DNA of 63,957 bases, the filler included. It is 8 parts of 8 records of this genome, joined end to end, with 100 filler letters (N's around TTAATTAATTAA, not from the genome) between each part and the next. Parts side by side here need not be neighbours in the genome. Positions count along the whole stretch, not along the records: positions 12,629 to 19,747 come from SRR31156797_47758; 7 more parts are not named here. One strand, 5' to 3'. The notes under the pieces were generated by a model that was not told the origin of the DNA, searched no databases, and was given only the letters and a program-made list of their open reading frames with translations. The position numbers and the translations under genes are program-made. Each line of letters opens with the position of its first letter. Positions within the stretch are counted from its first letter, which is position 1. Below are positions 2,617 to 56,625 of the stretch, piece after piece.

Positions 2617-3276
2617 CTATAACGAAATAAGTTGATTTTTAAACGCATAAATAACCAGATTGACGGTATTAAAAGTTTCTGTTTTTTGAAAGAGGTTGCT
2701 TTTATGTTTCTCCACAGTCTTGGGACTTAAATAAATCTTTTTGGCTATTTGCTCGTTGTTTAGTCCTTTACAAATTAAATGTAAGATTTGTTTCTCACGT
2801 GAAGTAAGCTTATTAAGTAGTTGCTCACCAGACTTCTGTTCTTTATCTTTATATAAATTGCGGGATATTACTTTTATTATTTCTGACGAAAAGTAACTTC
2901 CTCCTCTGGCAACTTTTTTTATGGCTTTTTCAAAATCTTCAATATCCGAGCGTTTTAACATATAACCTTCAACACCTGCGGAAATCATTTGTTCAATATA
3001 TTCATCGTCGGCAAAAGAAGTTAAGGCAATTACTTTTATTTCAGGATATTTTTTAAGTGCCTGTATTGTAGCTTCAATGCCGTTCATCTTTGGCATATTA
3101 ATATCCATTAAAACGATGTCTGGTACTACTCCATCAATAAGCTCCAGAAATTCTTCGCCATTTGATGCCTGCCCGACAACCGATACATAATCGAAATTAT
3201 TTAATAACATTATCAAACCATCTCTAAAGATTTTATGGTCGTCTACAATAATAATATTTGTTTTTATGTTTTCCAT
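2617..3276 (-). CDS. NarL/LuxR-family response regulator
   Basis: REC domain (VDDH..., MDINMP) and C-terminal LuxR HTH (LTSREKQIL...SPKTVEKHKSNL). Confidence 0.93.
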   Translation of the reverse strand: MENIKTNIIIVDDHKIFRDGLIMLLNNFDYVSVVGQASNGEEFLELIDGVVPDIVLMDINMPKMNGIEATIQALKKYPEIKVIALTSFADDEYIEQMISAGVEGYMLKRSDIEDFEKAIKKVARGGSYFSSEIIKVISRNLYKDKEQKSGEQLLNKLTSREKQILHLICKGLNNEQIAKKIYLSPKTVEKHKSNLFQKTETFNTVNLVIYAFKNQLISL

Positions 3277-3285
3277 TTTAGTACC

Positions 3286-4524
3286 TTAAATATTGAAACT
3301 TAGCATAATTTCAACTCCCTTTCCTTCTGCGCTGTTAATCTCATATTTGCCCCCAAATGACTCAACACGTTTGATAATATTGTGTAATCCCTTTTTTTCT
3401 TCGTCATACGTAAAAATAAGGTCAGGATTAAATCCTTTCCCATTATCGCGATACAATAAAATTACTGTTTTTCTGATATACTGAATATCAATAAATAATT
3501 CTGAAGCACCCGAGTGCTTGAGCGTGTTATTGATTAATTCGTTACAGATACGATAAGTGCTTATTTCCAAATTTGTGTCTAATCTCCTTTTTGAATCGGA
3601 TGAGTTAACCGTGCAATTAACTTTACCGGTATCATTTATTTTATCGCATATTATCTCTAACGATTTTACCAATCCAAATCTGTTTAAATTCGAGGGATTG
3701 AGGTTATTTATCGCAGCTTCGAGGTTTTCCAAAGCTATACCCGATAGTTCTTTTACTTGAATCAGGCTTTTGTTTACATTTTCATTTGTACAATCCTTTT
3801 CAATTAATTTAATAAAAAGAGCAATACTTGATAGAACAGAGCCAAGCCCATCGTGCAAGTCTGCGGCAATTCTTTTACGTTCTCTAAATTCAACTTCAAG
3901 AGATTTAATAACTTGTTGTTTTTCAATTGCATTATAAGAATTAATTAGCTTACGAATTAAAACCACACAAAGCACTAACAAACAGAAAATTAGAAATACT
4001 AATGCAAATATACCTTGCTTAAACTTAATGTTTTCGTGTATTATGTAGTCATTAATACTTTTATGTAATTTTTGATAAGCAATCTGAAAATCGTGATAAT
4101 TATCGAGGATAACTACATCAATTGCTTTTACATTGTTTTGTAAAGACAAAAATATTTGATTATGCAATTGTGCCACCTGGTTATTGACTGATTCTAGTGA
4201 TTTGCGAAGGTTGAACTCCCGGTTTCCTTTGTATTTCTTAACAATAAAGGAGTCAAGTGAGTTAATATATTCATTGGTGTATGTAAAACAATTTAGTATT
4301 GCTACTTTTTTTAGGGTATCGTTAAACAAAAAATAATCATCTAAAAATATTCTGCTGTGAGAAATCTCAAGATCAATGTTTTTAGAATGTTCTACCAACG
4401 AAAGATGTTCGCGGTCTAACTGCAAACTTTTTATTGAAGTATAAATAAGTCCGGCACAAGCAATTACTGTAAAAACGATAATCACTAATAAAACTCTTCC
4501 TCTAAAAATTACTTTTGAACTCAT
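3286..4524 (-). CDS. Membrane sensor histidine kinase (HisKA_3 type)
   Basis: Two TM segments, ERKRIAADLHDGLGS H-box, ELINNTLKH N-box, DNGKGF G1-box; directly upstream of the response regulator. Confidence 0.92.
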   Translation of the reverse strand: MSSKVIFRGRVLLVIIVFTVIACAGLIYTSIKSLQLDREHLSLVEHSKNIDLEISHSRIFLDDYFLFNDTLKKVAILNCFTYTNEYINSLDSFIVKKYKGNREFNLRKSLESVNNQVAQLHNQIFLSLQNNVKAIDVVILDNYHDFQIAYQKLHKSINDYIIHENIKFKQGIFALVFLIFCLLVLCVVLIRKLINSYNAIEKQQVIKSLEVEFRERKRIAADLHDGLGSVLSSIALFIKLIEKDCTNENVNKSLIQVKELSGIALENLEAAINNLNPSNLNRFGLVKSLEIICDKINDTGKVNCTVNSSDSKRRLDTNLEISTYRICNELINNTLKHSGASELFIDIQYIRKTVILLYRDNGKGFNPDLIFTYDEEKKGLHNIIKRVESFGGKYEINSAEGKGVEIMLSFNI

Positions 4525-5137: not shown

Positions 5138-6007
5138 TTATGAAAAAAGATAGTTAAGCGGATTAGGAGTATAATTCACCGTAAACACTGGTATCTTGCT
5201 TCCATGCACTATCTCAGAAACAAACTGGCCAATGTTGGTATTCGAGAATATCGATTCCTGATGGGTACGAATGATTACTAACTCAGGCTTTTTTTCCTGC
5301 AAATATTTTAATATGGCCTCATGTGTTTCCCGGTTGTGAACTTTGATGATTTCAATATCACATTCGACATCATGCTCCCAAAGTAAGTGTCTAATTTTTC
5401 GGGCGTTTTTTAAAGCGAGACTTTTGGATATATCTATATTCGCTTTTAGCGCAGATAGGATTGTAATTTTTGCATCGTGCTTTTTCGCCAAAAAAGTGGC
5501 CCACAGAAGTCTTTTTTTTGTGGATTGAGTAATATCAATTGGGATAGCAATGTTTTTTATTTTGGGTACACCAAAATCCTTATGAACTGTTAAAACCGGA
5601 CATGCTGATCGACTAACCAGTTCATCAATTTCATCGTTTTTCAAGGCTCCACGATAATTGCTGTTGCTTTTATCTATCAAAATAAATTCACGACCATCGC
5701 TTTTTGATTTTTCCAATAAAATATTGATTGGATTACCAGCTCGAACAGATATAACTATATTCTTTGGTAATTCACTGTCAACAACTTTCCGAACAAATTT
5801 TGTAAGCTCTACTCTGGCATTTTTAAGTGCTAAATCAACTTCCTGAGACTGAAAATTCCTTTCAAAAAATGTAGGAGCCTCTATTACATTCAAAACAACA
5901 AGCTTTACATCCAATGTGCTTTGCATGTAAAGTGCTTCTCTTAACACCATCTCGCCTTCCTTATTTGGAGGAATAAGCGCCAAAATACTATATGTTATCT
6001 TTTTCAT
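5138..6007 (-). CDS. Tandem-domain universal stress protein
   Basis: Two USP-like domains, each ending in a (C/I)PV(L/F)TV motif; 'IKNIAIPID' starts domain 2. Confidence 0.85.
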   Translation of the reverse strand: MKKITYSILALIPPNKEGEMVLREALYMQSTLDVKLVVLNVIEAPTFFERNFQSQEVDLALKNARVELTKFVRKVVDSELPKNIVISVRAGNPINILLEKSKSDGREFILIDKSNSNYRGALKNDEIDELVSRSACPVLTVHKDFGVPKIKNIAIPIDITQSTKKRLLWATFLAKKHDAKITILSALKANIDISKSLALKNARKIRHLLWEHDVECDIEIIKVHNRETHEAILKYLQEKKPELVIIRTHQESIFSNTNIGQFVSEIVHGSKIPVFTVNYTPNPLNYLFS

Positions 6008-6052
6008 ACTTCGTTTATTATTTAAGAAATAATATTCTAATTAGCTGACCTA

Positions 6053-6152
6053 NNNNNNNNNNNNNNNNNNNNNNNNNNNNNNNNNNNNNNNNNNNNTTAA
6101 TTAATTAANNNNNNNNNNNNNNNNNNNNNNNNNNNNNNNNNNNNNNNNNNNN
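6053..6152. other. Artificial contig spacer
   Basis: N-run + TTAATTAATTAA (stops in all six frames) + N-run; base composition changes across it. Confidence 0.98.
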
Positions 6153-6720
6153 CTGGCAGGCAAAAATCGATGTCATGAGGGGCAAAGACATTTCACATTC
6201 CCTGAACCGGGGGGATTCCGCCCTGACGCAAATCCTGGGACAAAGGCCTGCCTGTTCCGCCGTTCCCGGTTGGAAATGCCGGGATCAGGTGCTGCTGGAA
6301 AAAGCGAATTTCCCCTTTGCCTACAACAGCGACTGCCGGGGTCGGAGCATCTTCTATCCGGTGGTAGCGGGAAAAACCCTACCCCAGCCACAGATCCCGG
6401 TAACACTTCCCACCTATGATGAAGCAGTGGGACACGATGGCATCGACGAACATAATTTTAATGATTACATGCTGAGCCTGATCAGTCGCACCCAACTGAA
6501 TGTCCTGACAATCCATGCCGAGGTGGAAGGGATCGTCTGCCTGGACATGTTTGAGAGGTTCCTGAAATCCGTCCGATCCATGGGTGCCGGCCTGGTGCCC
6601 CTGGGCCAATTACTCAACAGTGCGCCTCAAATGGAAACAGCCGTCATTGAGCCCCGGGAGATTCCGGGCCGTGAGGGCTGGGTGGCCTGCCAGACCTCCC
6701 TGGACGGCGGCACCTGCTGA
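6153..6720 (+). CDS. arnD: ArnD-like undecaprenyl-phosphate-L-Ara4FN deformylase (5' truncated by contig edge)
   Basis: AVPGWKC, YNSDCRG, QIPVTLPTYDE, VLTIHAEVEG, IPGREGWVACQ motifs; immediately upstream of arnT. Confidence 0.88.
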
Positions 6721-6723
6721 CCC

Positions 6724-8373
6724 ATGAGACGAGCCGCCCCCATACTGCTCTTTCTTTTCTGCCTGGTCTATCTCCTTCCCTTGGGGATCCGGCCCATGAC
6801 CATTCCCGATGAATCGCGATACTGTGAAATCCCCAGGGAAATGATCGCTTCCGGCGACTGGACGGTCCCAAAGCTGAATGGCTTGAAATATTTCGAAAAA
6901 CCGGTATTGGGCTACTGGATCAATGCCCTGTCCATATCCCTGTTGGGCGAAATCCGGTTTGCCATACGCCTTCCCTCCGCTCTGGCTGCGGGCATCTCGG
7001 CCCTCATGCTTTTTTTTCTGTGCAGGCGGTTTGCCAAAGGGTCTTTCACGGGGATACTCGCCGCCGGCATCTATCTAACCTGTCTTGAGGTATTTGCCCT
7101 GGGTGTCATCAATATCCTGGACAGCCTTCTTTCCATGTTCTTAACGGGTGCCTTGATCTTTTTCTTCCACGGGCATCATGCGAAAAGACCCGAAAAAAGG
7201 AGGATTTTCCTGGCGCTTTTCGGCAGCTTTTGCGCCCTGGCCTTTCTGGTCAAGGGATTTCTGGCGTTTGCCGTTCCGGTTATCGTCATTTTTCCCTTCC
7301 TGCTCTGGGAGGGCCGCCTCAGGGAATTCATCAATGACATGTGGATTCCGCTTTTGGCAGCGCTTGTGGTGGCCCTGCCCTGGTGTATCCTTATCCACCT
7401 TCGCGAAGGTGATTTCTGGCACTACTTTTTCTTCATAGAGCACATTAAACGGTTTTTCTCTCCCATTGCGGGCCAGCACCCCAAGCCGTTCTGGTATTTC
7501 CTGCCCATTCTGGCAGGGGGGACACTACCATGGTTCTTCATCTTTCCCTCGGCGGCCAAAGGGTTGAAAGGGCTATCCCTGAAAGATTCTTTTCCCCGTT
7601 TTCTGGTTTGTTGGTTTTTATTCCCTTTTCTCTTCTTTTCAGCCTGCAGCGGAAAATTAATTCCCTATATCCTCCCCTGCTTTCCGCCGCTGGCCGTTCT
7701 ATTGTCCGTCGGGCTGACCCGATATTTCGAAGCAGGCAGACGAAAAACCTTTGATTTTTCGGTCTGTTTTTTCGGGGTGGTGACCGCTTTGACAGCCCTC
7801 CTCCTTGCCGCGAGCCTGCGTGCGGATTTTCCCTGGAAACCCATTTATGCCCCAGGGGAAACATGGAAAGGGGTAGCGGCGGTTATGGGCATTTTTATTT
7901 GGAGTGCTTTAAGCTTTTGCGCGGCAAAGGTTTCGGGACCCACAAAGAAGCTATGGCTATACGGTTCGGCTTCCCTGATGCTGCTGGCCGGTTCACCCTA
8001 CATCCTGCCGGACCGTATTTTTGAGGGGAAAGCCCCCGGTCAACTGTTGGAACGTCATATGGCGAAGGTGCATGCCGATAACCTGCTCGTATCAGACCCA
8101 TATCTGGTCCATGCCCTCTGCTGGTTTTACAAGCGTGACAACGTGTTTCTCTTGGAGAAAAGCGGGGAGTTGGGTTATGGCATTCGCCACGACTTCACAC
8201 AGCCCCCACGCCTGCTGACCCTGAAAGATTTTGGTGAGATGGTGGGGGATAGGGCCGGTAATCATGGCGTGATCCTGGTCATGGAAGCGGATCGGTATGA
8301 CCGATATGGAGATTCACTACCTGAACCCGGGCTCGTGGATCGGGAAGACGGGTTTGTGTTCGCGACCTACTAA
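6724..8373 (+). CDS. arnT: Lipid A 4-amino-4-deoxy-L-arabinose transferase (GT83)
   Basis: PDESRYCEIPREMIASGDWTVPKLNGLKYFEKPVLGYW, FLVKG, SGKLIPYILPCFPPLA. Confidence 0.92.
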   Translation: MRRAAPILLFLFCLVYLLPLGIRPMTIPDESRYCEIPREMIASGDWTVPKLNGLKYFEKPVLGYWINALSISLLGEIRFAIRLPSALAAGISALMLFFLCRRFAKGSFTGILAAGIYLTCLEVFALGVINILDSLLSMFLTGALIFFFHGHHAKRPEKRRIFLALFGSFCALAFLVKGFLAFAVPVIVIFPFLLWEGRLREFINDMWIPLLAALVVALPWCILIHLREGDFWHYFFFIEHIKRFFSPIAGQHPKPFWYFLPILAGGTLPWFFIFPSAAKGLKGLSLKDSFPRFLVCWFLFPFLFFSACSGKLIPYILPCFPPLAVLLSVGLTRYFEAGRRKTFDFSVCFFGVVTALTALLLAASLRADFPWKPIYAPGETWKGVAAVMGIFIWSALSFCAAKVSGPTKKLWLYGSASLMLLAGSPYILPDRIFEGKAPGQLLERHMAKVHADNLLVSDPYLVHALCWFYKRDNVFLLEKSGELGYGIRHDFTQPPRLLTLKDFGEMVGDRAGNHGVILVMEADRYDRYGDSLPEPGLVDREDGFVFATY

Positions 8374-9563
8374 AAACGGAACTGAAACTGAACACCATAG
8401 ATGGCGTATTTGCCGTTATTTACCCGGTTGTCCCAGGCATCCCGGTTGTCATCCCCGTCATCATACCACATAAATTCAGGAATCAGGTTAAACCCCTTTG
8501 CCACCTGTATGGGGATGCTGATCCCCCAGAACCGGGATTTGTACCGCATGGGATTCTTGTCCCCTTCGCTTTTCATTTGCCCATAGACCACATGTGGCGT
8601 CACAATTCCCACCCGGTAAGACCCGTCCACCCACCAGCCGTAGGTGGTTGTATTGTCCAGCCGGCGGTTATAGATGGTGGCGGCGGAGTTTCTCGCCGGT
8701 GGGCTGACGCCCATTCCGCCGCCCGTATTGCTCCAGTTCTGCCCCCAGTTGCCTTCAGCGCTCAACTGGAAGGGTCCGAATGCGGCCAAGACACCCAAGC
8801 TTCCGATGTAGGTGTCGATATGATTATCAATCCCATCAACATCCGGATGTTTGGTAAGGAAGTCAACCTTCCGCCGCTGATAGAGAAAACTGGGGTAGAT
8901 ACTGATGGGGCCGGCATAAATGGGAAGCCCCAGGTCGATCCTGGGCAGCTTGGTATCGGTCTGGTATTCAATGTTCTGGTAAGGGGTATAATTACCCAGT
9001 GCGGCACCGTTGGGATCCACCAGGGCCACGGCAAGACGTACGGTGTTGGTAAGGTGGTAAGTACCCCTGATCTGAGCAAAACGTCCGGAATAGAGTTCAC
9101 CGTAGCCCTCGCCGATAATGTTCAGGCTTCCTGATCGGGTACCCACCATCTGGTGGGGCAACAGGGGAGAAATGGGGGTCGTGGTTTTCCCGAAAAGGAC
9201 CTGAAAGTTCTCCGTTACATCCCACCAGGCGTAGGCATGCCTGAGCGTCACTCCGTCGCTGGTGCTCAGGGTTGTACCGCCACTGATCTGGCCCAGGCCC
9301 AGCTGTATGAACATGCCCACGTTATCTTCGTTGGTCCAATTCACATTAAACCGTGTTATATTTGGAACCTGTATGGCCGTATTGGTAAATGGATCGTTAC
9401 CGAGCTTTTTATATTGCGCATTTTCCCTGTTTCTATCCAGATAGTAGAAATCCACATATACCCGGCCCCCGATGGTGACCTTGGCCGGCGCCGGTCCCGG
9501 CAATACGATCAGAAAAGACAGCCATATGAAAAACACGAATAACCGTTTCAATATCTCCTCCAT
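8370..9563 (-). CDS. Outer-membrane beta-barrel/porin-like protein
   Basis: Signal peptide, aromatic-rich amphipathic strands, C-terminal GVQFQFRF beta-signal; start placed at ATG 9563 after GGAGG. Confidence 0.75.
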   Translation of the reverse strand: MEEILKRLFVFFIWLSFLIVLPGPAPAKVTIGGRVYVDFYYLDRNRENAQYKKLGNDPFTNTAIQVPNITRFNVNWTNEDNVGMFIQLGLGQISGGTTLSTSDGVTLRHAYAWWDVTENFQVLFGKTTTPISPLLPHQMVGTRSGSLNIIGEGYGELYSGRFAQIRGTYHLTNTVRLAVALVDPNGAALGNYTPYQNIEYQTDTKLPRIDLGLPIYAGPISIYPSFLYQRRKVDFLTKHPDVDGIDNHIDTYIGSLGVLAAFGPFQLSAEGNWGQNWSNTGGGMGVSPPARNSAATIYNRRLDNTTTYGWWVDGSYRVGIVTPHVVYGQMKSEGDKNPMRYKSRFWGISIPIQVAKGFNLIPEFMWYDDGDDNRDAWDNRVNNGKYAIYGVQFQFRF

Positions 9564-9703
9564 GGTAGCCCCTCCCGGTATCACCCGGGAGTCATAACAT
9601 ATCATAATGGGTTGACATTTTGAACCGAATACGCATCTAATACCTGTATCGGCGGTATGTTTCAAGCTGGAATTTCCGGAACCCGAAACGGAAGGAGGAT
9701 CAG

Positions 9704-12528: not shown

Positions 12529-12628
12529 NNNNNNNNNNNNNNNNNNNNNNNNNNNNNNNNNNNNNNNNNNNNTTAATTAATTAANNNNNNNNNNNNNNNN
12601 NNNNNNNNNNNNNNNNNNNNNNNNNNNN
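12529..12628. other. Artificial contig spacer
   Basis: N-run/TTAATTAATTAA/N-run. Confidence 0.98.
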
Positions 12629-13201
12629 ATATATCATTGGTAAAATATCAGAGAGTCCGGCAATTCCTCCTGCACTGTTTAATACATCGTGAAAAAAAAC
12701 ACGTTCCAGGGTTTGTCTTCTTTTTTCGTTGCTGATATCTGTTACGGTGAAAATGGTGAATTTATCGCCCTTTAACTTAAATGGAGTTGAAGTTATTTTT
12801 AGGTCGAGAGCATTTGTTTCAGCAGTAAGAATCCTGCATTCTTGTGTTGATTGTGACCCGGTTTGTGCGTCTAAAATAGAATTAACAGCTCCGCAGTTTC
12901 TGCAAAATTCACTGGTTCCACAACCTCCATCTTCTCTGAAAGCATATAAACAATTTACCGCTTCTCCAGGTCGTTTACCAAGTATCTGGTTTTGTTTTTC
13001 AAGTCCTAACAGGGTGAGAAACATTTTGTTGGCATAGATGATCTGTCTTTCTTTATTTAAAATTACAACCATCTGGGATAGGGCATCCAAAAGGGCAACA
13101 AGTACTTTGTTCGTACTGATTAATTCTAAACGTTGTTCCAGTATTTCCTTGGGGGCTCTTTTTGCCGGAGCAAATTTTGTAGATAAAGCATTTTTTTCCA
13201 T
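12629..13201 (-). CDS. PAS-domain histidine kinase, N-terminal part (3' truncated)
   Basis: PAS-like domain with Cys cluster (C...GCGTSEFCRNCG) then H-box LERVFFHDVLN. Confidence 0.8.
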
Positions 13202-13362
13202 ACAGTTAGTTTTATTAAGCTAGTTAAAGAAGACTAATAAAGCTCCTCTTCCTTATAAATTTAATAATAATCAAATTAAAAAACCAGACCAGGAATGAAC
13301 TGGTTCATACTTAAATGGGCTAACCGGAGAAAGATTTTATTGAAATAGCTAATCAAAAAAGG

Positions 13363-14691
13363 TTATCCTAATTTTTGTTGTACAGGTAGATTCCACTCTT
13401 CAATCATGGTTATTCCTAGTTTTTCCAGCTCATTTAAAATAGGCATATATATCGATTTTGAAACGGGAATATGAACACCTGTATCTGTAATTTTACCGTC
13501 TAAAATCATTTTTGTGCCAATAGCAGCCGGAAGTGCAACTGTTCTGGCAATTGAAGTATCTTTATTTGTGGCAAAATCCAGAAGACGAGACTGAACTACC
13601 TCGTTTGTTCCATCTGTCTTTTCAATTAGAAAAGAGTGTAGCATGATTACCATGTCGCGGCCATTATCCGACAACATCATTTTTCGCTTCATCAGGTCGG
13701 TAAGTAGGTCGAGACTCGAACCCTCGCTAAATGGGACAAGGTCGTCGCTAAATAATCCTAACCATTCCATTGCGAGTATAGCCGGACTGTCAATGGAGAG
13801 GTTGAGAATACCTGCTATCTTTTCTTTCATATTAGCCGGATAAACATTTACCTGGCGAGCCATAATCTTTTTATAGGTCTTGTTGTCAAATGATTGTGGT
13901 TCAGTACTCGTTAAGCCCAGGGTTTTTAAAGCATCCATAATTTCGCACCAATTGGGGTAACGGAAAGTTCCCCGGTACATGGTTTCAATATTTGGTAAAT
14001 TATAAATGTTGATGTAGGCCAGCGAATCGCGATTGGGATAAACATCCATTTCTCCAATTTCAGGGAAATTAATTTTCATCGGATTCTTAAATAATTGTTC
14101 GGTTGGGAGCTCAATAACATTTCCGTTTTTTTTGAATTTAGCTCCGTTGTTACCGGCCAATAACACCCCTTTGGGCGACCACGAAAATTTGTATCGGAAT
14201 GGGTTGTTGGCTTCCTCAGGAGCAGGTAAGGCACCGCACAACGAATAAAACTCTTTTATCTTTCCACCGCTTTCATGTACTTTATCGATAATGCGCATGG
14301 CCGTCATGTGGTCGAATCCCGGATCAACACCAATTTCATTTAAAATAATTATTCCGGCGGATTTGGCTGCCGCATCCAATGCTTTCATTTCTTCCGAAAC
14401 ATATGAAGAGGTAAGCATGTTTTTTTGGTGTTTTATACAAAGTTTGGCTACTGCTACATGGTACTGGTAAGGCAGCAAGCTTACCGTTAGGTCGTGTTCA
14501 GCAATTAATTTATCAAGTGTTTCCTCATTAGTTGTTGTCCATTGCAAGGCTTTTCCGTTTGTTCTTCCTGCAATTAATTTTATTGCCTTAGCTACGGTCC
14601 GACTGGCTATGGTAAGTTCTATATGGTTGTTTAGTAGATAATCTACAAGTGGTTTGGCAACCATTCCGGCTCCAAGTAATAGTACCTTCAT
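13363..14691 (-). CDS. Saccharopine dehydrogenase (glutamate-forming, Lys9/AASS-SDH type)
   Basis: VLLLGAGMV Rossmann fold, EIGVDPGFDHM, YSLCGALPAPE, YKFSWSPKGVL, YPNRDSL, RGTFRYP, SIARTVALPAAI. Confidence 0.92.
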   Translation of the reverse strand: MKVLLLGAGMVAKPLVDYLLNNHIELTIASRTVAKAIKLIAGRTNGKALQWTTTNEETLDKLIAEHDLTVSLLPYQYHVAVAKLCIKHQKNMLTSSYVSEEMKALDAAAKSAGIIILNEIGVDPGFDHMTAMRIIDKVHESGGKIKEFYSLCGALPAPEEANNPFRYKFSWSPKGVLLAGNNGAKFKKNGNVIELPTEQLFKNPMKINFPEIGEMDVYPNRDSLAYINIYNLPNIETMYRGTFRYPNWCEIMDALKTLGLTSTEPQSFDNKTYKKIMARQVNVYPANMKEKIAGILNLSIDSPAILAMEWLGLFSDDLVPFSEGSSLDLLTDLMKRKMMLSDNGRDMVIMLHSFLIEKTDGTNEVVQSRLLDFATNKDTSIARTVALPAAIGTKMILDGKITDTGVHIPVSKSIYMPILNELEKLGITMIEEWNLPVQQKLG

Positions 14692-14875
14692 ATTTTCTAT
14701 CTCCTTAATTGTTTCTGTTGTATGAACGAAATTTTCTCTTTTTCGTTTTGATTTTTGTGGTTTTTACAAAAAGCCTGGTAATATCGTAAAATTTAATTTA
14801 ATAATTCCTGACGAAGATCTGTTTTGTAAAACATCACAAAAATCATTATCTATAATACATAATTTTTATAAATTA

Positions 14876-15093
14876 GGCGCATGGTACAATCGTATTCATG
14901 TCCGGTTTTTTTCTATCAAGGCATGCCTGAATGTCTTGATGAAGATACAGTTTCGCACAAGCTGTAATCGCAGCAAAATTTATTCCATTCTTTTATTGGC
15001 ATGTGCCACCTCTTTTAGTAAGGTATTCTTTTGATCGGTTGTCGGTAAAAGAACATCGGAATCTGTCTGAATGCTAACTGCATTCAGTATTTC
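14876..15093 (+). promoter_or_regulatory. Candidate structured 5' leader RNA of the aminomutase operon
   Basis: Four hairpins plus a long-range closing helix, with G-U pairs favouring the + strand (see findings). Confidence 0.5.
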
Positions 15094-15132
15094 AACGTAA
15101 ATAAATATAAACGTACAATTAAAAATTGGAAC

Positions 15133-16692
15133 ATGATGAAAAGTGAACCAAATAACACCGACGTAAAGTCAATGTTGGAAGCCTATGATCTTGCACCAAA
15201 ATCTTTGGCAACAATAGAAGAAGAGAATTTAATTTCCCGGGGATTACTAAAACGATTGCATAATTGTTTCCCGGCTTATTCCGGATTTTTAAAAACCGGA
15301 AAAGCAACCTTTACCAGCAAGATTCATTATACGGGCTTAAAAGGATTTCGCGAAATTATTGATATTTTGAAACAAAAAGGGATTGAAATTGAAGCGATAA
15401 AAGAACGGGAATTCTTTCTTGAAGTTTATCGTTTTATGGCCACTAAACATATCTTGAACTGTATGAACTGGGAGAAAATTGAAGATGATCCGATCTATCA
15501 TCTGATTTTTCCACAGCCCGGAATGATAGATAAGGCAGATGTTCAAAAATATCTGGATACCCGGAATGACGGGGAACGCCGGAAAGTTGTTGAAGCATAC
15601 CAGTTAAAAACAAATCCACACGATGGCAAGCAAAAATTAAACAAACCATTCTTTTACAACGACGAGGGTTGTTTGGAGGTTCTTGAAGGAAGTCAACATA
15701 AATATCCGCCAATTAAACTTGTTCTCGATCAGGGCACTCAAAATTGTTTTGCATTTTGCACCTATTGTTTCCGTCATGCACAAGTTCGGGGCGACGAAGA
15801 TATGTTCGTGCAGAAGGATATCAATCAGGTACATAATTACTTGAAAAAACACAAGGAAATAACCGATGTATTGATTACCGGAGGTGATGGGGGATATATT
15901 TCTTTTGAACGTTTGGAAGAGTATGTAAAACCAATGATTGAGGATGAAGACCTTATGCATATTCGAACACTACGCATTGGTTCAAGAGTACTGACTTTTC
16001 ATCCTGAATTTTTACTCACTGATAAATTCAGAAAGATTCTTGAACTTTTGCGTTTTGTTATCAATAATGGTATTCAGGTGGTTTGGATGTCGCATTTTTC
16101 AACTCCTCGAGAGTTGTTAAATCCGGTTACTATAGCAGCCATAAAACGACTTAAGAATTACGGGCTTACATTAAAAAGCCAAAGTCCGATAATGAATCAC
16201 ATCAGCCTCTTTCGCGACCAAAATGGGAAAGTAGATGTCGATCGGTCGGCTCAAAACTGGATAGACCTGGGGAATGTTCTTGCCATGTTAGGTGTTGGTT
16301 TTCACTCCATGTATTGTGCACGACCAACAGGTGAACATCATTATTTTACTGCCCCTTTAGCTGATATTACAAAAATCTTTAGCAAGGTCTATCGCGAACT
16401 GGCCTCAATTAATCGCCCGTCGCGGCATATAACTATGACTTCTTCAGCCGGGAAAACCTCTTTAATGGGGACAACGATAATCAACGGTGAAAAAGTTTTT
16501 GTGCTGAAATTCAATGAGGCACGGAACATGACGTGGATGGATAGCGTATATTTTGCCGAATACGATGAAGAGGAAAATACCATTGAGAAACTAATACCAT
16601 ACAAGGTTGACAAATATTTTTATGAGGATGAGTTGGCCAATATCGAAAACCAACTTGAGGAAGCACTAAAGAGAGAAAAACATAAAGCTTAA
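15133..16692 (+). CDS. KamA-family radical SAM/PLP 2,3-aminomutase with non-lysine-type substrate residues
   Basis: QHKYP, CFAFCTYCFRH (CxxxCxxC), DVLITGGD, LRIGSR, SQSPIM, SSAGK (putative PLP lysine). Confidence 0.88.
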   Translation: MMKSEPNNTDVKSMLEAYDLAPKSLATIEEENLISRGLLKRLHNCFPAYSGFLKTGKATFTSKIHYTGLKGFREIIDILKQKGIEIEAIKEREFFLEVYRFMATKHILNCMNWEKIEDDPIYHLIFPQPGMIDKADVQKYLDTRNDGERRKVVEAYQLKTNPHDGKQKLNKPFFYNDEGCLEVLEGSQHKYPPIKLVLDQGTQNCFAFCTYCFRHAQVRGDEDMFVQKDINQVHNYLKKHKEITDVLITGGDGGYISFERLEEYVKPMIEDEDLMHIRTLRIGSRVLTFHPEFLLTDKFRKILELLRFVINNGIQVVWMSHFSTPRELLNPVTIAAIKRLKNYGLTLKSQSPIMNHISLFRDQNGKVDVDRSAQNWIDLGNVLAMLGVGFHSMYCARPTGEHHYFTAPLADITKIFSKVYRELASINRPSRHITMTSSAGKTSLMGTTIINGEKVFVLKFNEARNMTWMDSVYFAEYDEEENTIEKLIPYKVDKYFYEDELANIENQLEEALKREKHKA

Positions 16693-16696
16693 AAAT

Positions 16697-17419
16697 ATGA
16701 TCAACAAAGTTGTAAAATCGGCAGAAGAGGCAGTTGCCGGAATTTTCAACGGTGCAACCGTTATGATCAGTGGTTTTGGTGAGGCCGGGAGTCCGGTTGA
16801 ACTGATTCATGCTTTGGTTGATCAAGGGGCTAAAGATCTTACAATTGTGAGTAATAATGCCGGAAGTGGTCATGTTGGGCTGGCTGCTTTAATCGAAAAC
16901 CGGCAGGTTCGGAAAATTATTTGTTCTTTTCCACGAACAGCCATATCCGTTGTATTTCCTGAATTGTATCGTGCCGGGGAGGTTGAGCTGGAACTGGTTC
17001 CCCAGGGAACACTGGCCGAAAGAATTCGTGCTGCCGGTGCCGGAATTCCTGCATTTTATACTCCAACGTCGGTTAATACGCCCTTGGCTACCAACAAGGA
17101 AAAAAGAGAGTTTGGTGGAAAAACATACGTAATGGAAAAAGCCATTAATGCCGACTTTGCTTTGGTTAAATGCCTTGCGGCCGATAAATATGGTAATTTG
17201 ATTTATAATAAAACTGCCCGAAATTTTGGACCGGTTATGTGTATGGCAGCTAAAACTACAATTGTACAGTCAAAACAAGTAGTTAAAGTTGGAACAATCG
17301 ATCCGGAACATGTGGTTACTCCGGGAATATTTGTTCACTGTGTTGTTGAAATTGCTAATCCCGAAGATGAATCAAAACTGGTCTCACAAAATGTAAAATA
17401 CCATGGAATCAAACACTAA
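16697..17419 (+). CDS. pcaI: 3-oxoadipate/3-oxoacid CoA-transferase subunit A
   Basis: MINKVV, GFGEAGSPVELI, SNNAGSG, CSFPR, VPQGTLAERIRAAGAGIPAFYTPT, TARNFGPVM; CSFPR and NNAG are typical of PcaI. Confidence 0.82.
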   Translation: MINKVVKSAEEAVAGIFNGATVMISGFGEAGSPVELIHALVDQGAKDLTIVSNNAGSGHVGLAALIENRQVRKIICSFPRTAISVVFPELYRAGEVELELVPQGTLAERIRAAGAGIPAFYTPTSVNTPLATNKEKREFGGKTYVMEKAINADFALVKCLAADKYGNLIYNKTARNFGPVMCMAAKTTIVQSKQVVKVGTIDPEHVVTPGIFVHCVVEIANPEDESKLVSQNVKYHGIKH

Positions 17420-18062
17420 ATCAGTAGGTTGGAGTACAGCTGAAATGGCACAAAAAGTGGCTATGGATATTCATGATGGAGCCTATGTCAATCTGGGTAT
17501 AGGAATTCCTGAAATGGTTGCGGATTTTATTCCCGAAGGCCGGGAAGTGATTTACCACACCGAGAACGGTTTGTTGGGAATGGGAAAGGTTGCAACAGAA
17601 GGTAATGAGGATCCGGAGTTGGTTAACGCCGGTAAAAAATATGTTACTGCAATTCCAGGTGCAGCTTACTTTCATCATGCCGATAGTTTTGCAATGATAC
17701 GTGGAGGACATATCGATATATGTATACTGGGGGCTTACCAGGTTTCAGAAGAAGGAGACCTGGCGAATTGGTCAACCGGGAATCCTGGTGATATTCCGGC
17801 GGTTGGAGGAGCAATGGATTTGGTAGCAGGCGTGAAAACAATATTTGTGATCACTAAACATGTAACAAAAAACGGAGTGCCCAAAATTGTTAAAGAATGT
17901 ACTTATCCGTTAACCGGAAAGAACGTGGTAAGCCGTATATACACAAACTTAGCTGTTATCGACGTGGTAAATAAAAAGCTCTTTGTTCGGGAAATGGCTC
18001 CCGAAGTTCATATTGATTACCTGCAAAAATATACAGAAGCAAAACTGTATTTGATGGAATAA
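17403..18062 (+). CDS. pcaJ: 3-oxoadipate/3-oxoacid CoA-transferase subunit B
   Basis: YVNLGIGIP, HTENG (catalytic Glu), SFAMIRGGHID, GDLANW, AVGGAMDL. Confidence 0.82.
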   Translation: MESNTKSVGWSTAEMAQKVAMDIHDGAYVNLGIGIPEMVADFIPEGREVIYHTENGLLGMGKVATEGNEDPELVNAGKKYVTAIPGAAYFHHADSFAMIRGGHIDICILGAYQVSEEGDLANWSTGNPGDIPAVGGAMDLVAGVKTIFVITKHVTKNGVPKIVKECTYPLTGKNVVSRIYTNLAVIDVVNKKLFVREMAPEVHIDYLQKYTEAKLYLME

Positions 18063-18074
18063 AAAAACGATAAG

Positions 18075-19412
18075 ATGTCGAAAAAAGAAAATAGTGAGGA
18101 ATTATACTCAAAAGCTAAAAATGTAATTGTTGGTGGAGTGAGTAGGAATACTGTTTTTCGGAGACCGTATCCAAATTATGCCAATACAGCTTCGGGTTGT
18201 TTTATTACGGATATTGAAGGCAATGTACGTACTGATTTTGCAAACAATATGGCGGCCCTTATTCATGGGCATTCTTTTCCTCCAATTATTGATGCGGTAA
18301 TCGAACAGCTAAAAAAAGGAACTGCGTATACTTTGGCTTCAGAAATTGAAGTGGCTTTTGCCACGCACTTGATTGAACGAGGGAAAAGTTTTGAGCGAAT
18401 ACGTTTTATGAATTCTGGGACCGAGGCAGTAATGGCAATGATTAAAGCCTCCCGGGCCTACACTGGTCGTCCAAAAATTGCTAAAGCAGAAGGAGCCTAT
18501 CATGGCACCTATGACTTTGCAGAAGTAAGTCAGACTGCCAATCCATCAAATTGGGGGAAAGAAGACAGACCGACAAGTGTACCGCTGGCACATGGAACTC
18601 CTCCTTGTGTATCGAAAGATGTGATTGTTTATCCTTACAATAATATTGAACGAACATTAAGCATACTCGATAAACAGGCAGCAGATATTGCTTGTGTAAT
18701 TATAGATCCTGTGCCACATAGGGTAGGATTAATGCCCGGGAACGCTTCTTTTATTGAAGCCATTTATGACTGGACCAGAAAAAACGAAGCGCTTCTGGTT
18801 TTTGATGAGGTGATTACTTTCAGGGTAAACTATGGTGGGGCACAAGATAATTATAGCGTAAAACCAGACCTTACATCTCTTGGAAAGATCATTGGAGGAG
18901 GATTTCCGGTTGGTGCTGTTGCCGGAAGTGCAGAAGTAATGCGTGTTTTCGATCCGCATGAAAGCAATCTTCTGCTTCCTTATTCGGGTACTTTTTCGGC
19001 TAATCCTATCACCATGACAGCCGGTTACGAGGCGATGAAATATTTTGATAAGAAAGCTGTTTCAAAACTAAATTCGCTTACCAATGTAGCGGTAACTCAA
19101 ATTTGCGAGGCAATTAAAACTGCCGATGTGCCAATGTCTGTTACCGGTGCAGGTTCAATGTTTCGTATTCATTTAAAACAAACTGCACCAACTACTTATC
19201 GCGAAGCTTTTCTTTCCGACGACGGAAAAAAGCTTATAAACGAATTACTGGATTACATGTATTACGAAGAAAATACACTGATGATCAATACTTTTTCTTG
19301 TATGCTTTCAACTGTAATAACACAACGGGAAATTGATAAATTAACAGAAGGACTTTATCGTGCTTTTGTGAAGCTGAAACCTAAAATTGAAAAGTTAAAT
19401 AAAGAACGATGA
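18075..19412 (+). CDS. Class III PLP aminotransferase (GSA-aminomutase-like / beta-amino acid transaminase clade)
   Basis: RFMNSGTEA, GAYHG, FDEVITFR, PDLTSLGKIIGGGFPVGA, SGTFSANPITM. Confidence 0.85.
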   Translation: MSKKENSEELYSKAKNVIVGGVSRNTVFRRPYPNYANTASGCFITDIEGNVRTDFANNMAALIHGHSFPPIIDAVIEQLKKGTAYTLASEIEVAFATHLIERGKSFERIRFMNSGTEAVMAMIKASRAYTGRPKIAKAEGAYHGTYDFAEVSQTANPSNWGKEDRPTSVPLAHGTPPCVSKDVIVYPYNNIERTLSILDKQAADIACVIIDPVPHRVGLMPGNASFIEAIYDWTRKNEALLVFDEVITFRVNYGGAQDNYSVKPDLTSLGKIIGGGFPVGAVAGSAEVMRVFDPHESNLLLPYSGTFSANPITMTAGYEAMKYFDKKAVSKLNSLTNVAVTQICEAIKTADVPMSVTGAGSMFRIHLKQTAPTTYREAFLSDDGKKLINELLDYMYYEENTLMINTFSCMLSTVITQREIDKLTEGLYRAFVKLKPKIEKLNKER

Positions 19413-19428
19413 GTTACAGGCTGTATGA

Positions 19429-19459
19429 TGGCAGGTTAACTGGTTTTAGTTACCTGCCA
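19429..19459. other. Intergenic hairpin without U-tract (possible mRNA stability element)
   Basis: TGGCAGGTTAACT-GGTTTT-AGTTACCTGCCA inverted repeat with one bulge. Confidence 0.45.
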
Positions 19460-19508
19460 AATACACCGTTCTCATTACAAAGAATCTAAAATCTCAATAC
19501 GAATAAAA

Positions 19509-19747
19509 ATGAACGACGTTTTTATATGCGATGCAATCCGGACACCGGTTGGAAAATATGGAGGATCACTTTCATCTGTTCGTGCCGATGATCTGGCTGC
19601 TATTCCGTTAAAAGAACTAATCCGGCGAAACCCGGGGATGAATCCGGGTGCTGTTGATGACATTATTCTTGGTAATGCGAATCAGGCAGGAGAAGATAAT
19701 CGTAATATTGCCCGTATGGCACTGCTGCTTGCAGGTTTTCCGGAAAC
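19509..19747 (+). CDS. pcaF: 3-oxoadipyl-CoA thiolase (PcaF/PaaJ type), 3' truncated
   Basis: VFICDAIRTPVGKYGGSLSSVRADDLAAIPL and GNANQAGEDNRNIARMALLLAG, characteristic of the PcaF/PaaJ N-terminus. Confidence 0.85.
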
Positions 19748-19847
19748 NNNNNNNNNNNNNNNNNNNNNNNNNNNNNNNNNNNNNNNNNNNNTTAATTAAT
19801 TAANNNNNNNNNNNNNNNNNNNNNNNNNNNNNNNNNNNNNNNNNNNN
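19748..19847. other. Artificial contig spacer
   Basis: N-run/TTAATTAATTAA/N-run. Confidence 0.98.
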
Positions 19848-27635: not shown

Positions 27636-29045
27636 TTACATCCACCTGTACAATGCTTTAACCATCCACAGTACACGGTCATTATAGGGTGGATAGATCA
27701 TACCCAGTGATCCCCACTTCCGATGGATCACACTTCGCTTGTTGGAGAACTCCATAAAGCAATGAAAACCAAGTGACTTACCCATGCCACTGTTGCTGAC
27801 CCCTCCAAAGGGAAGGTCCGGGTTGCTGTATCCAAGCATGTAGTCGTTGATAATTGTTCCACCGGCAGGATTACCATCCATGAAATATTGGATGCCCTTC
27901 CTGTCATTACTGGCAATATAGAGCATCAGCGGATTCGGATGCCTTCGAATGATATCCTTCACCTCTGATCTCTCGTTGTAGGTAATAACAGGTAGAAGAG
28001 GACCGAATATCTCTTCATGCATGATGTTCATGTCCTCAGAGATATTGTCCAGCAATGTTGGCGGAATGAAAAGGTCATCCTCTTCAAAATTCCCTCCTGT
28101 AAGCAGGCTGGCACCCTTGTCCAGTGCATCCTGGTACAGGGAGCGAAGTCTCAGAAAATGATGGTTATTTATGATCCTGCAGTAATCAGGTGATGTTTCC
28201 GTACCCCTGCCGGACCTGTTGTAGAGTTCTGTGATCGATGACCTGAACTCTTCGATGAGCTCTCTTTTTTTAGAATCGTGAACGATAACATAATCAGGTG
28301 TAACACATGTCTGGCCGCAGTTTATCGATTTAGCCCATGCCAGTCGTCTTGCTATCCGGGGGATGTTCGCAGTCTCATCTATAATAGCAGGTGACTTTCC
28401 TCCAAGTTCCAGGGTAACACTGGTGAGATGCTCTGCGGCTTTTCCCATGACTATTTTACCTACACGAGGGCTGCCTGTGAAGAAAATATGATCAAAAGGT
28501 AGTTCCAACAGTTTTGTTGCTACCGTTGCATCACCTTCCACAACAGCCACTTCCTTCGATTCGAACAGTTCGCGAATCATCTTTTTGATGAAGATGGAAG
28601 TATGGGATGAGATCTCACTTGGTTTCAGTATAACAGCATTGCCTGCTACTATGGCATAGACCAGAGGTACAAGGGAGAGGTTGAGGGGAAAGTTCCACGG
28701 GGACATAATAAGAACGACTCCCTTTGCTTCGTAGCGGATATAGGACCGGGTCCCGAGCAATGGCAACGGAGTGGAGACTCTCTGGTCCCGATCCCATTTG
28801 TGGAGATTCTTTTTGATATAGGATATCTGGGTCTGGATAACACCCACTTCTGTCGCTATGACCTCGACCTCTGGTTTTCGCAGATCATTGTAAAGAGCTT
28901 CATAAAGCTCCTGCAGGTTATTCTCATCCTTAAGATAATTATCGATACGAAGTACACGCTCAATCCTTTCTTTTACATCGAGTGTTCCCAATCCGGGAGC
29001 CTCTTCTTTCTGAGACTGGAATATGGTTCTGATGTCTGGTTGCAT
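27636..29045 (-). CDS. Aldehyde dehydrogenase (ALDH3/coniferyl-aldehyde-like)
   Basis: PWNFP, LKPSE, FTGS, LELGGKSP, GQTCVTPD, EEIFGP, PFGGV. Confidence 0.92.
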   Translation of the reverse strand: MQPDIRTIFQSQKEEAPGLGTLDVKERIERVLRIDNYLKDENNLQELYEALYNDLRKPEVEVIATEVGVIQTQISYIKKNLHKWDRDQRVSTPLPLLGTRSYIRYEAKGVVLIMSPWNFPLNLSLVPLVYAIVAGNAVILKPSEISSHTSIFIKKMIRELFESKEVAVVEGDATVATKLLELPFDHIFFTGSPRVGKIVMGKAAEHLTSVTLELGGKSPAIIDETANIPRIARRLAWAKSINCGQTCVTPDYVIVHDSKKRELIEEFRSSITELYNRSGRGTETSPDYCRIINNHHFLRLRSLYQDALDKGASLLTGGNFEEDDLFIPPTLLDNISEDMNIMHEEIFGPLLPVITYNERSEVKDIIRRHPNPLMLYIASNDRKGIQYFMDGNPAGGTIINDYMLGYSNPDLPFGGVSNSGMGKSLGFHCFMEFSNKRSVIHRKWGSLGMIYPPYNDRVLWMVKALYRWM

Positions 29046-29099
29046 CGTGTGTATCACTTCGTTCCGTTTGTTCAAATTTCTCGATTTTTCTGTTGTATC

Positions 29100-32970: not shown

Positions 32971-33070
32971 NNNNNNNNNNNNNNNNNNNNNNNNNNNNNN
33001 NNNNNNNNNNNNNNTTAATTAATTAANNNNNNNNNNNNNNNNNNNNNNNNNNNNNNNNNNNNNNNNNNNN
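32971..33070. other. Artificial contig spacer
   Basis: N-run/TTAATTAATTAA/N-run. Confidence 0.98.
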
Positions 33071-41949: not shown

Positions 41950-42049
41950 NNNNNNNNNNNNNNNNNNNNNNNNNNNNNNNNNNNNNNNNNNNNTTAATTA
42001 ATTAANNNNNNNNNNNNNNNNNNNNNNNNNNNNNNNNNNNNNNNNNNNN
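41950..42049. other. Artificial contig spacer
   Basis: N-run/TTAATTAATTAA/N-run. Confidence 0.98.
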
Positions 42050-51282: not shown

Positions 51283-51382
51283 NNNNNNNNNNNNNNNNNN
51301 NNNNNNNNNNNNNNNNNNNNNNNNNNTTAATTAATTAANNNNNNNNNNNNNNNNNNNNNNNNNNNNNNNNNNNNNNNNNNNN
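51283..51382. other. Artificial contig spacer
   Basis: N-run/TTAATTAATTAA/N-run. Confidence 0.98.
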
Positions 51383-56525: not shown

Positions 56526-56625
56526 NNNNNNNNNNNNNNNNNNNNNNNNNNNNNNNNNNNNNNNNNNNNTTAATTAATTAANNNNNNNNNNNNNNNNNNN
56601 NNNNNNNNNNNNNNNNNNNNNNNNN
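56526..56625. other. Artificial contig spacer
   Basis: N-run/TTAATTAATTAA/N-run. Confidence 0.98.

Follow-up and report, generated by a model that had tools for sequence, protein, structure and literature searches.

A predicted 2-aminoadipate 2,3-aminomutase: a divergent KamA-fold enzyme with arginine and threonine at the positions of the lysine-binding aspartates

Introduction

The closest described system to the enzyme considered here is lysine 2,3-aminomutase (LAM; KamA/AblA; Clostridium subterminale, PDB 2A5H; TIGR03820). We take the LAM aspartates D293 and D330 to bind the epsilon-amine of the substrate lysine, and the arginine found at the place of LAM R134 presumably holds the substrate alpha-carboxylate. 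In the characterised glutamate 2,3-aminomutase the D293 and D330 positions hold Lys and Asn. The aspartate roles and the Lys/Asn pair were reportedly set out by Lepore et al. 2005 and by Ruzicka and Frey 2007. Here we describe a more distant member of this fold, encoded in a 63,957-nt stretch of DNA (the window) made of eight concatenated contigs, in which Arg and Thr stand at the two aspartate positions and which lies at the head of a conserved set of genes for 3-oxoacid metabolism. Judged from sequence, we read it as a radical S-adenosylmethionine (radical-SAM), pyridoxal 5´-phosphate (PLP)-dependent amino acid 2,3-aminomutase of the LAM fold that would act on 2-aminoadipate, a reading to which, taken as a whole, we give a probability of about 0.55.

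Results

A predicted, divergent aminomutase of the LAM fold

The mutase gene is on the contig at positions 12629-19747 of the window (SRR31156797_47758), and operon linkage is confined to that contig. The gene and the segments on which its assignment turns are as follows.

15133..16692, + strand: divergent KamA-fold radical-SAM/PLP aminomutase, 519 aa, predicted 2-aminoadipate 2,3-aminomutase (open reading frame, family models, fold match)
15745..15774, + strand: CFAFCTYCFR, with the cluster cysteines C205/C209/C212 and R214, equivalent to LAM R134 (alignments to 2a5h, hhalign)
16303..16323, + strand: HSMYCAR, with the Arg397 codon CGA at 16321-16323, at the LAM Asp293 position (hhalign, MAFFT)
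16429..16455, + strand: ITMTSSAGK, with the Thr434 codon at 16432-16434 (LAM Asp330 position) and the Lys441 codon at 16453-16455 (PLP lysine, LAM K337; hhalign)

The protein scored below the cut-offs of TIGR00238 (KamA family radical SAM; 79 bits vs 199.2), TIGR03820 (lysine 2,3-aminomutase, EC 5.4.3.2; 68.6 bits vs 525.4) and TIGR04368 (glutamate 2,3-aminomutase; 59.8 bits vs 650), and its sole Pfam match, Radical_SAM, was sub-threshold. A phmmer comparison with 2a5h gave E 8.3e-12. An AlphaFold2 model, built on a 26-sequence family alignment (A1) with a mean predicted local distance difference test (pLDDT) of 74.2 and a predicted template-modelling score (pTM) of 0.79, has the three-dimensional fold of LAM: Foldseek ranked 2a5h first (E 3.7e-11), and VIA-align superposed model residues 53-466 on residues 3-390 of 2a5h_B with Z 22.5 and a root-mean-square deviation of 2.8 Å over 287 residues, the next entry reaching Z 9.9. 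In the model the Arg loop comes after strand 389-395, and T434 lies within strand 433-437, consistent with the sequence register described below. The mutase thus belongs to the KamA superfamily by fold and by profile-profile match, not by the curated TIGR00238 model.

The phmmer and hmmsearch alignments to PDB sequences end at LAM residues 263-266, short of the specificity sites, and profile-profile alignment was used instead. LAM numbering was taken from the printed 2a5h alignment, in which YYIYQCD ends at D293 and FVVDAPGGGGK spans D330 to K337, and was anchored on a canonical Draconibacterium enzyme (770 bits on TIGR03820) that is gapless against 2a5h across the region. Alignment A1 was compared by hhalign with 34 canonical KamA proteins, collected from an evenly sampled set of Bacteroidota and from three genomes with the operon, giving a probability of 99.4 % in the global run and of 98.9 % in the local run (E 2.8e-17, per-column confidence 8-9 at the sites); with a broader clade profile in place of A1, the probability was 100 % (E 6.7e-49). 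The three runs share one register, gapless from residue 379 to 450, in which C205/C209/C212 = C125/C129/C132, R214 = R134, R397 = D293, T434 = D330 and K441 = K337, and a separate MAFFT alignment agrees with it. The CxxxCxxC [4Fe-4S] motif is thus present at its LAM position, and K441 is the equivalent of the PLP lysine K337 (confidence 8-9). The aspartate pair of LAM is absent from the mutase, which has Arg397 and Thr434 there; Asp/Asp/Lys was found at the D293/D330/K337 columns in all 34 canonical homologues.

These results confirm the core of the original prediction, namely that both lysine-binding aspartates are replaced while CxxxCxxC, the Arg that follows it and the PLP lysine are retained, and the HSMYCAR and ITMTSSAGK segments and the Arg codon at 16321-16323 lie in the open reading frame as it had placed them. 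Two details have to be amended. It had described a shorter loop between the sites, but R397 and K441 are 44 residues apart, exactly as D293 and K337 are, and PGGGG of LAM is matched by TSSAG of equal length, so there is no shortening. It had also named Arg and Thr as the substituting residues; Arg397 and a Thr do occupy the two sites, but the Thr opposite D330 is T434, not T436.

A search for the family gave 1428 matches among 8000 candidates scored, and the 120 matches listed are 66-83 % identical. Together with the window and 80 locus translations these make 201 sequences, not deduplicated, in which R397 is invariant (201/201) and T434 is present in 197, with Ser in the other 4; T436, K441, R214 and the three cluster cysteines are each found in 201/201.

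Beyond the shared fold, cluster motif, R214, K441 and gapless spacing, and a 1,2-amino shift chemistry that is presumably common to both, the mutase differs considerably from LAM. The two are ~16-19 % identical, the mutase has an insertion of ~12 residues before the Arg strand and is 519 aa long as against 416 aa, D293 has become Arg, D330 Thr and PGGGG TSSAG, and the gene lies in a different operon. Only four cysteines are invariant in A1, and the zinc-site cysteines of LAM have no counterpart among them.

The replacement fits an acidic substrate, in that a site that binds a cation in LAM has become cationic plus neutral with the alpha-carboxylate Arg and the PLP Lys kept. In such an enzyme Arg397 would be the partner of the distal carboxylate, and with Thr at position 434 the second negative charge of the site would be gone. 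The substrate would then carry a negatively charged side chain and be close to lysine in length, L-2-aminoadipate being the likeliest candidate.

A conserved operon predicted to serve 3-oxoacid metabolism

The genes that flank the mutase on its contig, and the ends of that contig, are as follows.

13363..14691, - strand: saccharopine dehydrogenase-family protein, divergently transcribed, upstream of the mutase (Pfam Sacchrp_dh_C 268 bits, Sacchrp_dh_NADP 83 bits)
16697..17419, + strand: 3-oxoacid CoA-transferase subunit A (TIGR02429 pcaI_scoA_fam, 350.5 bits vs 128.5)
17403..18062, + strand: 3-oxoacid CoA-transferase subunit B (TIGR02428 pcaJ_scoB_fam, 299.3 bits vs 243.55)
18075..19412, + strand: class-III (GSAM-like) aminotransferase, predicted 3-aminoadipate transaminase (Pfam Aminotran_3)
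19509..19747, + strand: thiolase, first 80 codons, ending with the contig (tblastn with the thiolase of locus L015, 75 % identity over 80 aa)
12529..12628: spacer (N run, TTAATTAATTAA, N run), left end of the operon contig
19748..19847: spacer, right end of the operon contig; the N spacer begins at 19748

Relatives are encoded in 223 stretches from species-representative genomes, and the locus counts given here and below refer to the 80 of these 223 that were retained. Next to the mutase were found CoA-transferase subunit A in 77/80 loci, subunit B in 75/80 and the aminotransferase in 74/80; a thiolase gene follows in 70/80, and stands directly after the aminotransferase in all nine loci scanned with Pfam. 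Clustering at stricter coverage gave similar counts (A 75, B 75, aminotransferase 71, thiolase 68), and the order mutase, CoA-transferase A/B, class-III aminotransferase, PcaF-type thiolase is kept in ~70 of the 80. The thiolase orthologue of locus L015, which is full-length, exceeds the cut-offs of the PcaF equivalog models (657.6/597 and 678.2/605). Locus L015 comes from the cultured Draconibacterium orientale DSM 25947 and has its mutase gene at 8001-9566. The two CoA-transferase models cover PcaIJ and ScoAB without telling them apart, and the PDB relatives of the aminotransferase include beta-phenylalanine aminotransferase and beta-transaminases. The operon is widespread, occurring in Bacteroidota of sediments and digesters and in genomes of Ignavibacteria, Acidobacteria, Desulfuromonadales and Chlorobi-like bacteria. 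Of 121 Bacteroidota genomes sampled evenly, however many carry it elsewhere, one has the family, and that is the genome of the query itself.

In the route that we propose, the mutase would move the amino group of 2-aminoadipate from C2 to C3, giving 3-aminoadipate, the aminotransferase would convert this to 3-oxoadipate, the CoA-transferase would form 3-oxoadipyl-CoA, and the thiolase would yield succinyl-CoA and acetyl-CoA. The last two steps resemble the end of the beta-ketoadipate pathway (PcaIJ, PcaF), in that the transferase subunits and the L015 thiolase pass curated cut-offs; what differs is the predicted supply, which would come from an aminomutase plus a transaminase in place of phenylacetate or the cleavage of aromatic rings.

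Clostridial and Fusobacterium lysine fermentation runs through KamA, KamDE, Kdd, Kce and Kal. The proposed route is like it in placing a radical-SAM 2,3-aminomutase first and a CoA-transferase and acetyl-CoA formation last, and unlike it in that a transaminase would remove the beta-amine. No homologue of the B12 5,6-aminomutase, the dehydrogenase, the cleavage enzyme or the ammonia-lyase recurs in the 80 loci.

Upstream of the operon, 15/80 loci have a gene for an HTH_3 plus cupin protein of ~184 aa (for example L029, 3570-4118, + strand), a candidate for a pathway regulator that senses a ligand.

The other contigs of the window are set apart by further spacers.

6053-6152, 12529-12628, 19748-19847, 32971-33070, 41950-42049, 51283-51382 and 56526-56625: artificial spacers (N/TTAATTAATTAA/N), seven in all, dividing the window into eight contigs

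Because these spacers are artificial contig joins, genes on separate pieces of the window have no physical linkage. An ALDH gene (27636-29075), a CDGSH protein and a TrmB regulator, among others, were considered as operon neighbours and rejected, as they lie beyond 12528/19848 and the spacers put them on other contigs. The GC content of the contigs ranges from 0.32 to 0.61 across the window, a spread that points to a mixed bin or to metagenome contigs simply strung together.

Links to lysine and aminoadipate metabolism

L-Piperideine-6-carboxylate dehydrogenase (P6CDH) is the enzyme that produces 2-aminoadipate. A P6CDH equivalog (802.8/730 bits) is encoded in 25/80 loci and saccharopine dehydrogenases in 22-24/80, and no other metabolic genes recur beside the five-gene core. 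The divergent gene at 13363..14691 of the window has orthologues, 69-77 % identical, at the same position in Prolixibacteraceae loci, and an AlaDh_PNT_N (LKR-like) gene was seen in two loci (L001, L012). In the Desulfuromonadales locus L049, the P6CDH gene (5933-7453, + strand) immediately precedes the mutase gene in the same orientation, and its product is 67 % identical to the Draconibacterium one, a second case of linkage and one from outside the Bacteroidota. In five operon genomes searched for the usual sources of 3-oxoadipate, PcaD was over the cut-off in 0/5 and PaaA had matches in 0/5; the 3-oxoadipate enzymes of these genomes therefore need another feed. The gene context favours an acidic C6 substrate, with 3-oxoadipate as the product two steps on.

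This context also bears on whether the protein could be a divergent lysine 2,3-aminomutase, whose beta-lysine would be transaminated at C3 and then cleaved to acetyl-CoA and 4-aminobutyryl-CoA. Several family members are named 'L-lysine 2,3-aminomutase' in JGI records, and genes of lysine pathways do lie nearby. Yet those neighbours belong to the saccharopine route, in which the epsilon-amine is removed before the mutase step; neither of the two lysine-binding Asp is kept, and at one of the sites a cation has taken its place; the score on the lysine model is far from its cut-off; and a canonical lysine 2,3-aminomutase above the cut-off is already present in each of the three operon genomes searched. 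We regard this explanation as highly improbable, and the substrate is very probably something other than lysine.

Two further observations were made in Draconibacterium orientale. Its canonical AblA gene (L083, 1423-2754; the 770-bit enzyme used above as numbering anchor) is directly followed by that of a beta-lysine N-acetyltransferase (AblB equivalog, 2747-3583; 283 bits vs 205.1), the two forming the osmolyte N-epsilon-acetyl-beta-lysine pair. The organism also carries (L130, 12452-13372, + strand) a gene of the HGLS family (2-oxoadipate dioxygenase/decarboxylase), which hints at a second, oxygen-dependent handling of lysine-derived C6 acids.

Distant relatives and the meaning of the arginine

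On clustering at 50 % identity the tight family reduces to about one representative, amid uncharacterised KamA-like proteins that are 25-37 % identical to it. Of 57 such relatives 48 were used; P0150, P0160, P0169, P0194, P0198, P0206, P0223, P0234 and P0255, with a frameshifted or unalignable C-terminal region, were dropped. Arg is present at the D293 position in 32 of the 48 and Ser in nine. Among the 32 with Arg, the D330 position holds V in 13, S in 11, I in 3, C in 2, M in 2 and A in 1; Thr is found there in none, and the Arg/Thr pair is thus limited to the tight family. R428 and R431 are also conserved throughout this distant Arg clade. In a rough FastTree phylogeny (273 columns, midpoint root, read for topology only), the window family falls inside the Arg clade, apart from the Asp/Asp proteins. 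Across the clade, the choice among V, S, I, C, M and A at the D330 position may specify different substrates.

The members of this clade (P0124-P0265, ~390-610 aa) have a strand of the type PYYMF-x-x-RD-TG and an R-G-P-x-M-S...GK segment, and the twelve that were scanned all fell below every curated NCBIfam cut-off. A second Draconibacterium member of the Arg clade (L088/L130) lies behind mreBCD-pbp2-rodA, an uninformative context.

Arg397 might, on this evidence, be a structural or cofactor-contacting residue across a large KamA-like clade, the substrate of the mutase being neutral or of another kind, for instance leucine, handled by a beta-keto route. Such an explanation agrees with the presence of Arg in two thirds of the distant relatives (32/48) together with a varied second site, with the equally clade-wide R428 and R431, with the low model confidence at the Arg loop and with the fusion, in one relative, of an Arg-bearing domain to an N-monooxygenase-like domain (both detailed below). 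It accounts less well for the tight family, in which the block F390-H403 is extremely conserved and an Arg/Thr pair of its own is found. Genes of branched-chain catabolism are not a recurrent feature of the 80 loci, and a dicarboxylic C6 skeleton is what the PcaF-type thiolase and the linked genes of aminoadipate production speak for. We consider a structural Arg unlikely, though it is the least improbable of the alternatives weighed here.

A second, independently evolved glutamate 2,3-aminomutase is only slightly less probable. Its beta-glutamate would be transaminated to 3-oxoglutarate, which would then be activated and cleaved, or decarboxylated to acetoacetate and taken to acetyl-CoA by a ScoAB-type transferase and thiolase. 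In 251 Desulfobacterota genomes the glutamate 2,3-aminomutase model was the best for seven proteins, of which the top two (L123 and L124, at 632 and 608 bits just below the cut-off of 650) have Lys/Thr at the two sites and the other five Asp/Asp. The basic/neutral pattern of the mutase, Arg/Thr, parallels the Lys/Thr of these near-threshold proteins, the long Arg side chain could offset a shorter substrate, the CoA-transferase models span PcaIJ and ScoAB alike, and glutamate is available everywhere, while P6CDH was not found in 5 of the 10 operon genomes tested. Set against this are a score of 59.8 bits on a 650-bit model and a placement in the rough tree apart from the glutamate-like Lys/Thr proteins, which nest within the Asp/Asp clade; if that tree holds, the basic/neutral swap arose independently in the two groups. 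The L015 thiolase, moreover, is above the cut-offs of models for 3-oxoadipyl-CoA thiolase, and the genes that recur beside the core are those for P6CDH and the saccharopine dehydrogenases. The glutamate-like domain of L124 (1486-4101, - strand) lies in an open frame of 872 aa, about twice the usual length, which may represent a fusion with another domain.

Returning to 2-aminoadipate as the substrate, several observations weigh against it. The swap itself has no power to separate a C6 substrate, aminoadipate, from a C5 one, glutamate. An Arg side chain reaches several angstroms further than that of Asp, and the geometry could suit the shorter glutamate equally well. With Arg in 32/48 distant relatives, the residue is possibly ancestral to a broad clade and may be no reader of a side-chain carboxylate. 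In the model, pLDDT is below 50 at residues 161-227, 397-399, 401-403 and 437-440, the Arg397 loop included, and these loops are unreliable as a guide to whether Arg397 points toward the pocket. Because the Arg is clade-wide, the swap lends the aminoadipate assignment only partly independent support. One relative, P0138 (882 aa), joins an Arg-bearing KamA-like domain to a histamine/diamine N-monooxygenase-like domain (TIGR04439, 259 bits, cut-off 700); it is possibly a natural-product enzyme, and the fusion hints at a non-acidic substrate.

The gene context has its own weak points. P6CDH adjacency is nearly confined to Prolixibacteraceae, the Desulfuromonadales metagenome-assembled genome (MAG) with locus L049 being the other case, and the operon contig of the window has no P6CDH gene. 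Among the ten operon genomes without a linked copy, which are MAGs and may be incomplete, P6CDH was found elsewhere in only 5, as compared with 58 of 121 in the Bacteroidota background, and there is thus no enrichment; co-occurrence gives no support for an obligate coupling to P6CDH outside Prolixibacteraceae. The aminotransferase is below every NCBIfam equivalog cut-off, and the thiolase of the window is incomplete, owing to the contig end and not to a deletion.

The original prediction had concluded that the substrate has a carboxylate side chain and that the residue swap independently supports aminoadipate. The first part holds up reasonably well, as the swap fits and the gene context agrees; the claim of independence is weakened by the clade-wide Arg and by the inability of the swap to tell C6 from C5. 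From the replaced residues and the gene context together, an acidic amino acid is the probable substrate, and 2-aminoadipate in particular is somewhat favoured.

Discussion

No 2-aminoadipate 2,3-aminomutase and no 3-aminoadipate route was found in a literature search that did not reach ~1.7 million PMC articles or the subscription literature. Exchange of one active-site Asp (D331G in B. subtilis, D339H in P. gingivalis, each in that paper's own numbering) turns lysine 2,3-aminomutase into alanine 2,3-aminomutase (PMC9850924). The distribution of Arg397 carries a more general caution, that a residue swap seen in one family can be shared by a whole clade without determining specificity.

Taken at its fullest, the proposal is that this family would be the founding 2-aminoadipate 2,3-aminomutase, opening an oxygen-independent route from lysine or aminoadipate to succinyl-CoA and acetyl-CoA by way of an Arg397/Thr434 switch, and that it would form one tip of an uncharacterised Arg clade whose further specificities would be set by the residue at the second site (V, S, I, C, M, A, T). 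We put this forward tentatively, holding it a little less probable than the substrate assignment alone.

If the proposal is true, records that name family members 'L-lysine 2,3-aminomutase' or 'hypothetical protein' would be corrected, and a natural route from 2-aminoadipate through 3-aminoadipate to 3-oxoadipate would be of use to the engineering of C6 dicarboxylates and beta-amino acids. For the organisms that carry the operon, it would supply both a novel enzyme activity and an anaerobic arm of lysine catabolism that has been missing, and for KamA-like enzymes it would provide a two-residue rule for substrate charge.

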